A stretch of DNA of 63,220 nt, filler included, from Reclinomonas americana ATCC 50394 (taxonomy: Eukaryota): assembly GCA_048213135.1 (NCBI GenBank). It is 6 parts of 5 records of this genome, joined end to end, with 100 filler letters (N's around TTAATTAATTAA, not from the genome) between each part and the next. Parts side by side here need not be neighbours in the genome. Positions count along the whole stretch, not along the records: positions 1 to 26,730 come from PS015192.1; positions 26,831 to 38,868 come from PS015193.1; 4 more parts are not named here. The stretch is one strand, 5' to 3'. The notes under the pieces are model-generated. The model ran no database searches. It was not told where the DNA came from and saw nothing but the letters and a program-made list of their open reading frames with translations. Position 1 is the first letter of the stretch; every line of letters begins with the position of its first letter. Below, in pieces: positions 22,104 through 33,581 of this stretch. The translations under genes and the position numbers were made by a program.

Positions 22104-25100
22104 TTACTTGCCGACACCGGCGGCGGAGGCAGCAGCGCCGGCCACTGTGCTGGGTTCGATCTGTGGGAAGGAGGGTGGGTGTGAGGTGTTGCCATGATCG
22201 GGTGGTGAATGCACAAATAAGGAGAGTAACCTCGGCGTACACCGAGGCGATCTCGTCGGCGTAGCGGCGGGCGAGCACTGGGCGCTTGATCTTCATCCTG
22301 TATATGCGGTGGTATTGGCGTGTCATGAATCACATTGACATAGAAAAAGAGCGGCGGGGGAACGAAACGTGGGTGTGCAGGCGTCATTGTCCACTGCGAA
22401 ACGACACGGGCGAGGCAAGTCAGTGCGGTGCACGAAACAGCACCGGGAGGGGAGGAGAGACAAAGAGTACAAACCAGTCCACGGCTCCTGCTCGACGATA
22501 ATGGCCGCCGGAATCTCAAAGCTGGTGAACTGTGCGGCGAGCACGGGTGTTACAAGAGGTGCCACACACACACACACACACAGCAAGAGATGCGTGCACT
22601 TCATTCGACGTGCCTTCTCCGCCTTCGCAATGGTCCTGATCTGCTCGTGGATCTCAGCCGACAGCTGGTCACGCTTGTCCGACGCCACCACCGCTTGCAA
22701 AATGGTCTGCCACGGATCGACAGTGAGCATGCAGCGGGAAAGCGGCACGAAGAAGGGAGACGTGGCTCACCTCGGTGCCGCGCTTCTCAATGCCGTGATG
22801 GGCAGCCCAGGCCGTCACCGCGACTGCAGGAAAGAGGGGATGAGACGACGCCATCGGAACGTAAAACACAGTGGATCACTCACTCTCGTCGGGCACGACA
22901 ACGGCGATTAGCTGTGAAACGCAGCGGAAAACTGTTAGCGGCACAGAGGGAAATAAAAGGCAAGGCAAGCTAGGCGACGAAACCTTGGTGCGCAGGCCGT
23001 CACCTGCAACAAAGAAGCCAAGACAACAAGAGTCAGTCTCCAGCACCACCCTCTCAGCACACGAGAAAGAAAGCGCACCGTACACAAAGATCTGGCCGAC
23101 CAGAGTGGCCGCGGAGAACGCGCCCTCCAGCTTCTCGGGACTGTGTCAACACATAACGCGTGAGGGACTCCAGAAACCACCACCAGGCAGCTCGATACGG
23201 AGGGAGACGCAACGCAATGTACTCGCCGAGTGCCGTCTTGAACAGAGCTGCACCGCGAGTACAGAGTGTGAGAGAAACACATGAACGACAATCAATTCTG
23301 CACAGAAAACGCAACACTTGGCACGGTCGACAATCGAGAAAGTGCCGTTCGGGTTGCGGCGACCAATGTCACCGGTGCGGAACCACCTGCAACAACACGT
23401 CAGCGACACTCGCCAGCAAGAGGGCGGGAGGGCAGATGGGACATACCCGTCGCGGAGGAACACCTCGGCGGTCTTCTCCGGCTCCTTAAAGTAGCCGGCC
23501 GTCACCGTCGGGCCGCGGATGCACAGCTCACCAGACTCTGGCAGGCGGTACGGGCCAAACTCCGACGCATCGGCAAACTTGATCTCCACGGAGATCGTGG
23601 GAGCGCCAATGACGCCGACATCGCCGTCGTTGACGAGCTGGATGGTGGAGGCGGCGCACGTCTCCGTCAGACCGTAGCCCTGCACCACGTTGCACATGAA
23701 GCACCTGTGTGTTTGCGCGCGCGAGTGTGTCAGCAAGAAACGNNNNNNNNNNNNNNNNNNNNNNNNNNNNNNNNNNNNNNNNNNNNNNNNNNNNNNNNNN
23801 NNNNNNNNNNNNNNNNNNNNNNNNNNNNNNNNNNNNNNNNNNNNNNNNNNNNNNNNNNNNNNNNNNNNNNNNNNNNNNNNNNNNNNNNNNNNNNNNNNNN
23901 NNNNNNNNNNNNNNNNNNNNNNNNNNNNNNNNNNNNNNNNNNNNNNNNNNNNNNNNNNNNNNNNNNNNNNNNNNNNNNNNNNNNNNNNNNNNNNNNNNNN
24001 NNNNNNNNNNNNNNNNNNNNNNNNNNNNNNNNNNNNNNNAACATCAGCATGAATATCACGGATGGAAAACGCACGCGCGGAGGAATTGCTGGATCTCCGG
24101 GCGCAGAGGGCCACCACCAGAGATCATGGTGTGCAGGCGACCGCCGAGGGTGTTCTTCGTCTTGCGGAAAATCTGTGGTACAGAGAGGATGAGCCAGCGA
24201 CACAAGATCAAGTGCGCCGACAAAAGCACGAAACCAGGCAGTCCATGCAGCACGTGTTGCGGCCCGACATCTTCTTGGCGAGGGCGTTCTGGAAAAGGCG
24301 CTGCTTGCGGGCCGGGAGCTACACACGAGGGGTGAGAACGCGGAAGAGCGCTGTGCCGATCGTACAGAAGCGTACCTTGGCCACATTCTGTAGCAGCACA
24401 AACGGGAGAGAGATGAGCATGGCAATTAAAGAATGGGAGATGATCACTGCACGGAACGCACCGCCATGACACCGTCGTGGAGACGCTCGTAGATGCGCGG
24501 CACACCGGCGAGGATCGTCGGGCGGAGGGCACCTGCACGATGACGCGACGAGTGAGCAAAGGCACACGGGTGAGTGACATATTGAACAGCACGCACCCAA
24601 GTCGTCCTTGATCTTGCGCGGGTCCTGCGGGGAATACAACAAGACAGGTTAGCATCGCCGAGGTTCAAGCCGGCCACTGCTGCAGCTGTTCTACACACCC
24701 CACTGTAGTAGCCAATGGAGCTGCCGCACATGAGGAAGAAGTTCTCAATCACACGCTGTGTGCAAAATGAGGCGAGATTATAAGAGTCGGTGACAATGGA
24801 AGCCAGTGAATTCGGGGGAGCGCAGACGCACCTCGAAGATCTGGTTCGCAAGAATGCACACAGATGATACAAATGTGAGCACAGATAATACAAGGAGAGC
24901 ACGAGGTTGATTGGTTACGCACGTGAGCAAGCGGGAGGAACGCCAGGATGCAGTCACACGTCTTCAGGCGACGCATGTTGCTGGCAGCACCTGCACACAG
25001 CATCAGCGTCAGCAGCCCGACACGAATCCTGGTCTTTTCACACACACGCAGCACCAACCAGCAATCGCGGCCACCATGTGGTTGTGGTGAATCATGACAC

Positions 25101-26650
25101 CCTGCGTCGATCAGTGAGCACGATACCACACAAATGAACGCACCCTTGCAATGCTCACCTTCGGCACGCCAGTGGTGCCGCTGGTGTACATGAGAATGGC
25201 CAGCTCCTGCGGCGACGGGAGCACATCCTCCGACGGATGCTCCGCACCCTGTCGCAACAATGAGATCAGAAACTTATCAGCCCCCTCGCATGCGCGTGGT
25301 GAGCACCACACACCAGTCGGCCGAGCTCCTCCAGCGTGAGGATGTTGCGACCGGCGGCGGCGACAGCGGCCTTGTCATTCTCCGTCACCTGATTGTCGAT
25401 GACGATGATGTGGCGCACGAGGGGCACTTGGTGCAGGGTGGACAGGAGCTGTGTGTCACCGGAGGGTGAGCATGCGCCACGATTGAGAGACGCTCGAGAA
25501 CGGATGGAAAACCTTGGCGAGGCATTCGGGAGCGCACAGCACAGCCTGGCACTCACTGTCGTGCACGCACAGGAGGTGTGTGAGAAAAGAAGAACGTCAA
25601 GACAAGAACACGAGCGATAAGCCGACGAAACGAGTGCTCGAGAATGTACCTGCATGGGGCGAAAGACGTCGTCGTCAGTTCACAGACAAAAGGGAAAACA
25701 GATGATTCGCAAACACGACGCAACTCCACGGCATTCGGGCCGAGCGTGTCATACAGCGACACGGTGACCATGTTGCGACGGTAGCACGCTGTGAAACGAG
25801 TGAGAAACCTACCCTTGACTCCCTCTCCTTTCCTCCCGTTTGCTCACCATGCTCCACCAACTGCCACTCGAAGCGAGTCTGCACACGACGAAAGACCATG
25901 AGTCGCACGACACCGCACACTCATTCACCTGGTCGATGACTTGCCTTGGCGTAGAAGCCGATCGGAGCACGCGGCTGCAGTCCCAGGTGGGTCAGACCTG
26001 CACGCACACAATGAGGTTCTCTCCATCGACCATTCTCGCATGGGAGCGCACAAACCAGCAGCGTACTGCGCAATGTGGCGATCGGCCTCCTCGTACGTCA
26101 TCCACTGGTACGGACCCTCCTGGCGATGACTGCACAGAGTGTGTGAGCGCCCTCAACCTCACACACGCACACACACTGCGTCACATCGCGGAAACACACC
26201 CGAGAGCCTTGCCAGTACGGTTGAGTCCCAGGCCGCAGCGGAAGCACTGCGTGCATTCCCTCTTTCAGATCTCTCTCTCACACACACACTCAAACCTGCT
26301 CATGAGGAGCGAGACGCAACGTCGGCCAGCGTGAGCACATCGATCGGGAGATCGGCGTACACATCCTTCGGCTTGGTCACCAACTCAGCACCGGCCTTGG
26401 CATTGCTACAGCGAACAATCAACATGACGAATGTACACACACACACAGCACACAGCGCACAGAGTCGCTCACCGGAACACGCCTGCGCATGTGTGAGAAG
26501 AGAGCGAGAGTGTGAGCACACATCGGTTGCAGAGGAGAGGAGTTGGGAGGAGCAACACACCATCGCCGATATCCACACTCTGTGCGTCCACAGCAGGGAA
26601 GTGCGCAATCTGCGACGCGCTATAGCCAGCGTTTGATGAACAGCAGCCCA
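22104..26650 (-). CDS. Long-chain fatty acyl-CoA synthetase (ACSL/LACS family), about 32 introns, 5' end at contig edge
   Basis: Motifs YTSGTTGVPKGVM, FLPLAHIFER, QGYGLTET, GELCIRGP, WFRTGDIG, IVDRAKSLFKTALGEYIAPEKLE and TPTMKIKR all restored by manual splicing. Confidence 0.95.
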
Positions 26651-26774
26651 CTGCATCACACACGCAAAGAGAACGATGAGTGACGTATGCATGACACGCA
26701 TGCACACGCAAGCGATAATAACATCGTGACNNNNNNNNNNNNNNNNNNNNNNNNNNNNNNNNNNNNNNNNNNNN

Positions 26775-32588: not shown

Positions 32589-32729
32589 TGACACCGCGGA
32601 CGACTTGCAGAGAGACAGCGCTCGTGTACACAAAATATATCGAGATTTGAACAGACACAGACAGAATTGAGAGGAGAACGGAAGGGATTGAGAGACAGGC
32701 AAGAGGATTAGGGAAGGCAGAGACGCAGA

Positions 32730-33581
32730 TTAGCCGTACAGCGCCTCACTGAGACCACGTATCCGGCGGGCGAGTTGAATGTCCTTGGGCTGAATGGTGA
32801 CACGCTTGGCGTGAATGGCACACAGATTTCTGCATTGTCGGAAAAACTTAGTCGCTGTGTGTTGTCGCAAGTTAAGCCAAGAAAAAACGCAACGAGTCCT
32901 CAAAGAGTCCCACCAAGTACGCCTCCGACGCCTCCTGCAACGCCTCCAACGCTCTCGCCTGGAAGCGGTAGTCCACGTGCGGTTGCACCGTTGCCGCAAT
33001 CTCGCGAACGAGCCGCGCAAACGGCAGTCGTCTCATCAGCAACTCTGAGCTCTTTTGGTACTTGCGAATCTCACGCAGCGCCTTGGTGCCCGGTCGGTAC
33101 CGCCGTCGCTTGCGCGATCCATCACCGCCAGCAGTGCCAGCAGACACCGATGAGGCGCCACCAGGAGACATCAGACCGGCTGCGCAAAAGAGAGAGAGAG
33201 AGAGAGTGAGTGACATCGCCATCTCGCACACACACTTTCGCTTTCGTGCACACACGCACGCCTGCTCTCTCCTTCTTTCTCCATCTCTTACTCAACGCCT
33301 GCTCGTCGAGCGTAGTGCACATCGATGAGGAGACGGAAAGGCCAACGTGTCGCAGCATGTCACACACACACACTCACTTTCACACACACTCTCTTACACA
33401 TCGACGTACCTCGCTCCAAGTGCTTTGACGACTTGCCCTTCTTCTTGTTCTTCTTGGACGAGGCCGCAGAGAGGGCGGCCGACGAGGATGCAAGTGCCTT
33501 CTTCGGAACTTTGTCGCCCTTGTGTGCAGCCGACGACGCCGACGAGCCACCAACACGCTGACGACCACCGCTTGGAGGCAT
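32730..33581 (-). CDS. CENH3: Centromeric histone H3 variant (CenH3/CENP-A-like)
   Basis: H3 fold ([59 protein letters not shown]) with a divergent N-tail lacking ARTK, Q68->A, a loop 1 two residues longer than H3 (ATVQPHVDY) and a C-terminal extension. Two introns. Confidence 0.85.

Follow-up and report, generated by a model that had tools for sequence, protein, structure and literature searches.

Two kinds of 5′ splice donor coupled to the last exon base among predicted introns of Reclinomonas americana

We have analysed a stretch of 63,220 nucleotides (nt) of DNA from Reclinomonas americana ATCC 50394 (assembly GCA_048213135.1), hereafter the window, in which predicted introns begin with two kinds of 5′ splice donor that are coupled to the last base of the preceding exon. 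The window has ~57% G+C and is gene-dense, its genes being cut by many introns of 60-80 nt. The genes considered here most closely encode a long-chain acyl-CoA synthetase (ACSL), an aldo-keto reductase (AKR), a UBLCP1-like protein, a CenH3-like histone and two NHL-repeat proteins (Table 1). All introns are model predictions within the window, and the models impose GT-AG termini on each of them. Donors are written with a slash at the exon-intron boundary, and positions are numbered forwards from the first intron base (+1) and backwards from the last exon base (−1).

Two donor classes and the last exon base

The ordinary donor has the consensus G/GT(G or T)(T or C)GT, with little information on the intron side and G as the final exon base. 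The rigid donor comprises seven nearly fixed intron bases, GTTNCGT, with G preferred to T and T to A at +4; the exon before it ends in A or T, less often in C and least often in G. The G-T pair that occupies +5/+6 in ordinary donors lies at +6/+7 in rigid donors. Two sets of introns were compared. The curated set contains the 51 introns of ACSL, AKR, UBLCP1 and CenH3 (IQM and UBE2W are outside it), placed by spliced alignment to homologues for ACSL and by gene models for the other three. The second set comes from our own gene finder, which scores codon usage, intron positions +3 to +8, branch site, acceptor and length, and uses zero exon positions; the GTT-N-CG motif was supplied to it as one donor class. 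Counted window-wide over genes scoring >25, it contains 226 predicted introns. The rigid class accounts for 18 of the 51 curated introns and 53 of the 226, or between about a quarter and a third of the introns.

The last exon base is coupled to the donor class. In the curated genes G is at −1 in 2/18 GTTNCG donors, both of these exceptions being GTTTCG, and in 31/33 others (Fisher p = 2.9e-9); UBLCP1 taken alone gives p = 1.6e-4. In the finder set G precedes 6/53 GTTNCG donors (−1 bases A16 C10 G6 T21), 98/163 donors with G at +5 and 3/10 of the rest (p = 1.6e-10). The first-pass annotation of this DNA had proposed such a contingency, and it is thus present in both sets of predicted introns. 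Its description of UBLCP1 was reproduced in a 360-amino-acid (aa) open frame, where all eight ordinary donors follow G and the seven rigid ones follow T, C, T, T, A, A and A; one detail differs from that description, since only seven of the eight ordinary donors have G at +5, the other (30656) being GTGCAA. Its totals over six genes, with about 18 of 20 shifted donors following a non-G base against about 3 of 47 others, are reproduced in part, from the four curated genes; 18/20 is reached on adding two finder GTTNCG donors near UBE2W. The exceptions that it listed, G/GTTGCG at 3846 and 56408 and T/GTGAGT at 57949, were confirmed.

Of the ordinary donors in the finder set 38% follow a base other than G, above the earlier 3/47. 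Part of this excess is error, since the finder sometimes places donors 2 bases off at GT runs (e.g. 30447) and thereby inflates the non-G ordinary class; part is real, and consists of GTGAGT and GTGCGT after A, C or T. Runs of the GT dinucleotide (GTGTGTGT) begin at many ordinary donors (30445, 33771, 43191, 54258 and others), which leaves the exact cleavage site there uncertain to any predictor, and possibly to the cell as well. The finder also missed some small exons. Early versions that lacked signal models fused genes and skipped small exons, and a version retrained at a lower intron penalty was unstable, so its rows are excluded from the counts.

A strict subset of the finder introns was taken, with signals of at least 2 bits, lengths of at most 200 nt and three strand-conflict regions dropped. 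Among its 108 introns G is at −1 in 5/40 rigid and 42/68 ordinary donors (p = 3.5e-7). Conflicts arise at a very long coiled-coil gene of some 30 introns (4586-13400, minus strand), whose opposite strand gives long spurious open frames that were also called as genes; 4600-8850 and 13100-15300 were therefore left out of the strict counts.

The heptamer GTTGCGT occurs 45 times in the window, where 15.2 ± 3.8 are expected; none of 100 shuffles reached 45. Predicted sense-strand donors account for 35 of the 45, with A12 C6 G2 T15 at −1. A model-free test of hexamers with a strong 3′ signal within 130 nt gave G before 3/29 rigid and 31/99 other hexamers (p = 0.03), a weakly informative result as its threshold misses most true introns.

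Within the 40 strict rigid donors positions +4/+5 are GC in 33, TC in six and AC in one. The GTTTCGT subtype follows G in 3/9 cases and GTTGCGT in 2/35, and the two may be read differently, for example by way of a bulged U in G/GTTTCGT. Ordinary donors after G have A at +3 in 2/42 and at +4 in 2/42, a poverty of A that sets them apart from GTRAGT, the donor of most eukaryotes; among all ordinary donors +6 is nearly always T (61/68). Two relatives of the rigid class were seen in uncurated models. A/GTTGAGT (29296-29357, plus strand) has A at +5, the form that a shifted helix with consensus U1 would favour, and G/GTGGCGT (20161-20346, minus strand) has G at +3.

Beyond the donor the two classes share their signals. 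Lengths do not differ (median 68 nt for the 40 rigid and 71 nt for the 68 ordinary introns) and interior composition is alike. Branch motifs (CTCAC, CTGAC, TTGAC) lie at a median of 23 nt from the intron end in both classes and score alike (p = 0.42), and the acceptor is CAG in 37/40 rigid and 66/68 ordinary introns. Both classes have GT-AG ends and a YTRAY-type branch motif 15-40 nt from the acceptor, as U2-type introns do. The common length, branch motif and CAG acceptor thus point to one U2-type system. Pairing of the rigid donor with a complement inside its own intron was considered and rejected; the mean energy is −6.8 kcal/mol with its own intron body and −7.0 kcal/mol with swapped bodies, and ACGCAA is found in 1/40.

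Compensation between the exon end and the donor class is supported, best of all by paralogous intron sites in the NHL-repeat genes, in keeping with the earlier suggestion that the rigid donor sits where the exon cannot end in G. At the site that follows D in LYVxD the exon ends in T or C in seven copies, five with GTTNCGT and two with GTGAGT; the copy that ends in G (a Glu codon) has the weak ordinary donor GTAGGT. At a site two residues downstream a copy ending in A has GTTGCGT and one ending in G has GTGCGC. These junctions preserve the spacing D-x-x-N-H-x-I-R of uninterrupted repeats in the same genes. Ordinary donors that lack the exon G are mostly perfect GTGAGT or GTGCGT, and A is at +4 in 5/9 trusted ordinary donors without G and 2/42 with it (p = 0.001). 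Rigid introns show an excess of phase 2 (15/40, compared with 15/68 for ordinary introns), a phase in which exons seldom carry G ahead of GT (6%). Three solutions therefore coexist: G with a loose intron side, a non-G base with GTGAGT or GTGCGT, and a non-G base with the rigid heptamer. Where the exon does not end in G, the heptamer far outnumbers the alternative (35 rigid versus 9 GTGAGT/GTGCGT in the strict set).

Active avoidance of G at −1 by rigid donors is not established, as the 5/40 compare with ~9 expected from exon positions preceding GT, a difference that is not significant. For GTTGCGT alone the 2/35 give p = 0.02 against a background of 0.22. A+T at −1 of rigid donors is enriched (28/40 against ~18.5 expected), partly from paralogous GAT codons. 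A self-sufficient rigid donor, together with ordinary donors filling the G sites, would produce a deficit of G without active avoidance.

Gene models and their junctions

The ACSL gene spans an N gap (23743-24039) that separates its two halves. Its introns were placed using 24 homologues, fetched via one exon and aligned by our own spliced aligner, which uses GT, AG and BLOSUM62 only. The model is 46% identical to the closest homologue (P0001) over residues 12-405 and 49% over residues 406-674. Two spots, near 25800-25940 and 22520-22600, are ambiguous, and rigid donors are at neither. In a collection of 5.8 billion proteins, none of them from the window, the closest relative is only 46-49% identical over the full length; the top named matches are from Naegleria fowleri and Bodo saltans, and the organism seems to be sparsely sampled and to lack annotation.

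A five-intron model of the AKR gene gives a clean reductase sequence. In the CenH3-like gene, aligned with histone H3 (chain 1kx3_A), the exon upstream of the rigid intron ends at residue 106, codon 107 is split and the downstream exon starts at residue 108. The UBLCP1 frame has a ubiquitin-like start and the phosphatase motif DIDYT. Each of its introns has 1 to 48 frame-keeping alternatives, so the open frame alone leaves the boundaries non-unique. Of nine exons compared with Pfam, exon 15 gave the sole match, a weak one to NIF (E = 0.22). Three exons of 21-28 aa had no useful match among solved structures, and the last exon (51 aa), in a full HMMER search, matched two fragments (49 and 60 aa). 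These exon checks being weak, the UBLCP1 junctions are taken from the open frame and the signals only. A 106-aa exon of the NHL-repeat genes has bacterial NHL proteins as its best database relatives (45-58% identity).

Five identical joins of 100 bases (26731-26830, 38869-38968, 49458-49557, 58013-58112 and 61273-61372) each consist of 44 N, the twelve bases TTAATTAATTAA, which give stops in all frames, and a further 44 N; they look like artificial contig joins. All other stretches of N, which are 58 to 943 bases long, represent ordinary gaps.

Table 1. Genes, rigid introns and related donors in the window, with the support for each; "signals" denotes the signal model of the aligner.
Feature	Donor	Position	Strand	Support or remark
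ACSL gene		22104..26728	−	Two halves around N gap; 29 introns, consensus model
ACSL rigid intron	C/GTTGCGT	26247..26320	−	Closest homologue P0001 only; finder
ACSL rigid intron	A/GTTGCGT	25650..25724	−	Donor in 18/24 homologues, GT-AG and similarity only
ACSL rigid intron	C/GTTTCGT	25556..25631	−	6/24 without, 13/24 with signals
ACSL rigid intron (exception)	G/GTTTCGT	24173..24234	−	9/24 without, 18/24 with signals; rival donor 13 nt away in 10/24
ACSL rigid intron	T/GTTGCGT	23248..23315	−	22/24 without signals
ACSL rigid intron	C/GTTGCGT	23141..23213	−	16/24 without signals
ACSL rigid intron (exception)	G/GTTTCGT	22912..22983	−	2/24 without, 19/24 with signals
ACSL rigid intron	C/GTTTCGT	22298..22368	−	8/24 without, 15/24 with signals; interval of the first-pass annotation starts at this donor
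GTTTCGT after G, all three	G/GTTTCGT	8531-8604, 22912-22983, 24173-24234	−
AKR rigid intron	T/GTTGCGT	27041..27109	+	Gene model
AKR rigid intron	A/GTTGCGT	27659..27722	+	Exons abut exactly: 4fzi_A 248/249, 2wzm_A 244/245, 4otk_A 279/280
UBLCP1-like gene		30087..32588	+	16 exons, 15 GT-AG introns; one 360-aa open frame
UBLCP1 rigid intron	T/GTTACGT	30243..30381	+	Frame
UBLCP1 rigid intron	C/GTTGCGT	30777..30853	+	Frame; heptamer enriched over shuffles
UBLCP1 rigid intron	T/GTTGCGT	31307..31369	+	Frame; heptamer enriched over shuffles
UBLCP1 rigid intron	T/GTTACGT	31436..31500	+	Frame
UBLCP1 rigid intron	A/GTTGCGT	31588..31647	+	Frame; heptamer enriched over shuffles
UBLCP1 rigid intron, long (412 nt)	A/GTTGCGG	31900..32311	+	Frame
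UBLCP1 rigid intron	A/GTTGCGT	32373..32432	+	Frame; heptamer enriched over shuffles
CenH3-like gene, rigid intron	C/GTTGCGT	32830..32893	−	Junction residue-exact against histone H3 chain 1kx3_A
Two NHL-repeat genes		50092..58012 (50092-54529, 55476-58012)	−	Neighbouring genes with many introns; paralogous intron sites
NHL LYVxD site, rigid donors	GTTNCGT	50709, 52510, 53152, 54469, 57286	−
NHL LYVxD site, ordinary donors	GTGAGT	55999, 57949	−
NHL LYVxD site, donor after Glu	G/GTAGGT	51245	−

Reading of the rigid donor

The predicted introns are those of a single U2-type GT-AG system with two kinds of donor. The rigid donor has its whole signal inside the intron and is therefore found where the coding sequence forbids a final G, and this gives the coupling. 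Any model with a self-sufficient rigid donor predicts the same association, so the association alone does not show how the donor is read. The first-pass annotation had proposed a shifted U1 helix. In our version of this the helix at the 5′ splice site would be displaced by one base, so that G+1 of the intron takes the place of the exon G−1; U+2 would be unpaired, and cleavage would still occur before the GT. Pairing was computed with the consensus U1 5′ end, AUACUUACCUG in the available part of PMC3033335, which is assumed for this organism. With this end the 40 rigid donors make 5.3 pairs in the shifted register and 3.7 in the canonical one, and the 68 ordinary donors 3.3 and 6.6 respectively. 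The gain in pairs agrees with the earlier proposal. The energies do not, as the mean best duplex is −1.2 kcal/mol for rigid and −5.5 kcal/mol for ordinary donors, and at the former value the displaced helix is not stable enough to recruit U1.

Since the displaced helix is too weak with the textbook U1, an altered U1 end would be expected. The alteration would be at the two positions facing +4/+5 of the rigid donor; were the two pseudouridines there replaced by G-C, the end would suit both classes. All 16,384 guides of seven bases were paired with the 108 donors, ungapped and in every register, and ACGCACC came out best (5.77 pairs, compared with 4.76 for ACUUACC). Such a hypothetical end gives −7.1 kcal/mol for rigid and −10.0 kcal/mol for ordinary donors, and only then would the displaced helix be stable enough for recruitment of U1. 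GTTGCGT slid by one base is the commonest ordinary string, G/GTGCGT, save at one position, and +4 is T or C in 39/42 ordinary donors with G at −1, which would pair or wobble with the guide G. A displaced helix on an altered U1 is the reading that we tentatively prefer, although we would not call it probable. It is possible, and put forward with some diffidence, that the fixed heptamer is read one base out of the usual frame through a change in the pairing end of U1 or the origin of a second U1, giving a code of two registers or two guides that allows introns after any exon base. If true, the almost universal code between 5′ splice site and U1 would have been rewritten in a eukaryote for a quarter to a third of its major-type introns.

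Several observations weigh against the displaced helix on an altered U1. With the consensus end the rigid donors are the weakest of the window, averaging −0.85 kcal/mol when G is lacking at −1, while ordinary donors that follow G average −6.5 kcal/mol. The invariant C at +5, which the shifted helix of the first-pass annotation also leaves unexplained, faces a mismatch, and the pairing form GTTGAGT occurs once. The exon positions are not shifted along with the helix, A being at −2 in 16/40 rigid donors and at −3 in 5/42 ordinary ones. GTGAGT donors after non-G exon ends favour the ordinary U at guide position 5, and the search for guides is skewed by the base composition, which is rich in GC. 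The U1 end is identical to the consensus even in GC-rich algae, according to the available part of PMC3033335, which lowers the prior for an altered end. All introns are predictions from only 63 kb of DNA, and several of the rigid NHL donors are paralogous and thus not independent.

A second U1-type small nuclear RNA (snRNA), or a U1 variant, complementary to GUUGCGU might instead read the rigid donors in register, leaving the rest to ordinary U1. This would account for all seven nearly fixed positions including the C at +5, for the rigid donor being the main non-G solution (35 versus 9) and for the coexisting GTGAGT donors; with a guide designed as the complement of the heptamer, rigid donors reach −10.9 kcal/mol and ordinary ones stay at −6.2 kcal/mol. 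On the other hand ACGCAAC as a single guide for all donors falls slightly below ACGCACC (5.60 versus 5.77 pairs), and the window offers no snRNA, with no match of any kind at the Rfam gathering threshold and four chance-level matches, none an snRNA, at E up to 1. We know of no variant U1 that serves a quarter of any organism's introns. Human variant U1 snRNAs with changed 5′ ends do exist, as the accessible text of PMC3561869 and PMC10870369 indicates. We regard this explanation as a serious one that is nevertheless rather unlikely.

Alternatively U1 might be of minor importance. The motif would then be recognized by another or a later-acting component, be it U6, U5 together with Prp8 or a sequence-specific protein; the coupling would be an example of the general 5′/3′ compensation within splice sites. 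This fits the weak U1 duplex of the rigid donors, and the T or C that ordinary donors favour at +4 would suit a contact with U6 rather than U1. An anticorrelation between exon end and intron side is general, and the available text of PMC11732430 ascribes it to loop 1 of U5 against the ACAGA box of U6. However, the known intron-side class, GURAG, has G at +5 where the rigid donor has it at +6, the ACAGA box offers the fixed UUGC no evident partner, and the data name no factor. We consider a later factor unlikely.

In another arrangement one U (+2 or +3) would bulge out of a helix with ordinary U1, and GT(T)GCGT would be read as GTGCGT. The rigid motif is indeed the commonest ordinary motif with one T added, and a +2/+3 bulge is a proven human register in the part of PMC4856993 available. 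In this arrangement the last exon base still faces the same C, so that G at −1 should help no less than in ordinary donors; yet G is seen there in 2/35 GTTGCGT donors and 42/68 ordinary ones. Moreover the bulged copy should be weaker than GTGCGT, and is fourfold commoner after non-G exon ends. Such a reading seems possible only for the GTTTCGT subtype, with G in 3/9, and for the class as a whole it is distinctly improbable.

The remaining explanations are together quite improbable. The rigid donors could be the conserved ends of mobile introns (introners) spread regardless of exon context, as random insertion would give non-G exon ends and the motif is far more uniform than ordinary donors; but in a search confined to the window the 40 rigid interiors share nothing with one another (seven weak pairs among the 108 introns of the strict subset are short simple matches, and no rigid-rigid pair is similar at E<1e-3), lengths, branch sites and acceptors are those of ordinary introns, and duplicated target bases are not seen at the intron ends, so we give introners very little credence. 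The class is hardly likely to be an artefact of the gene models, even though every intron is predicted, the frame alone permits alternatives and the finder was given the motif, because the heptamer is enriched threefold over shuffles, similarity-only alignment recovers it in ACSL and junctions are residue-exact in CenH3, AKR and the NHL repeats; nor is it likely to be a transformed minor (U12-type) class, since among the 53 rigid introns none starts with RTATCC and none has CCTTRAY near the 3′ end (0/53 each; motifs as defined in the available part of 10.1101/2020.10.12.336362).

Comparison with known systems

Few signals in eukaryotic gene expression are as conserved as the pairing end of U1 and the G/GTRAGT-type donor, and compensation between the −1 base and the intron side is textbook knowledge. 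The coupling described here is an instance of that known principle, and the donor class and its share are new as far as the literature was searched: no description of GTTGCGT or of a donor class with G at +6 was found there, subscription journals not being covered. A genome that uses a discrete rigid donor with G at +6 for ~1/3 of its introns would be a natural system in which to study how the cleavage site is fixed with a displaced helix, and would bear on how far the U1 code can evolve. Gene finders with a single donor model would misplace ~1/3 of the exon ends in such a genome, as our own first passes did here.

Compensation has lately been framed in terms of two donor classes (PMC11732430, available part). 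As there, the last exon base and the intron side are anticorrelated in the window, and a strong intron side frees the exon end. In contrast, GTTGCGT with its +6 G, and not GURAG, forms the intron-side class in the window, and the ordinary donors hold both G at −1 and G at +5.

U12-type introns are expanded in Physarum, and on the evidence of the part of 10.1101/2020.10.12.336362 available they resemble the rigid introns in forming a second, abundant class whose 5′ motif is long, rigid and independent of the exon. They differ from them in their 5′ and branch motifs, both absent here, and the rigid introns have 3′ halves equal to those of ordinary introns. As for variant U1 snRNAs (available text of PMC3561869 and PMC10870369), several U1 5′ ends in one genome could similarly read different donors. 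No large share of introns is known to depend on such variants.

A close parallel in mechanism would be with human shifted and bulged registers. Shifted registers of the 5′ splice site on U1 were reportedly described in human by Roca and Krainer in 2009. The resemblance lies in GT-AG ends, the lack of G at +5, better pairing with U1 one base out of register and cleavage before the GT. Validated non-canonical registers together make up 1.5% of human donors (Tan et al. 2016; PMC4856993, available part), whereas here the rigid class makes up 18/51 curated and 53/226 predicted introns. The rigid motif differs further from the human ones: all seven of its positions are fixed, it has C where A would be required in the human motif, and its predicted duplex with U1 is very weak.

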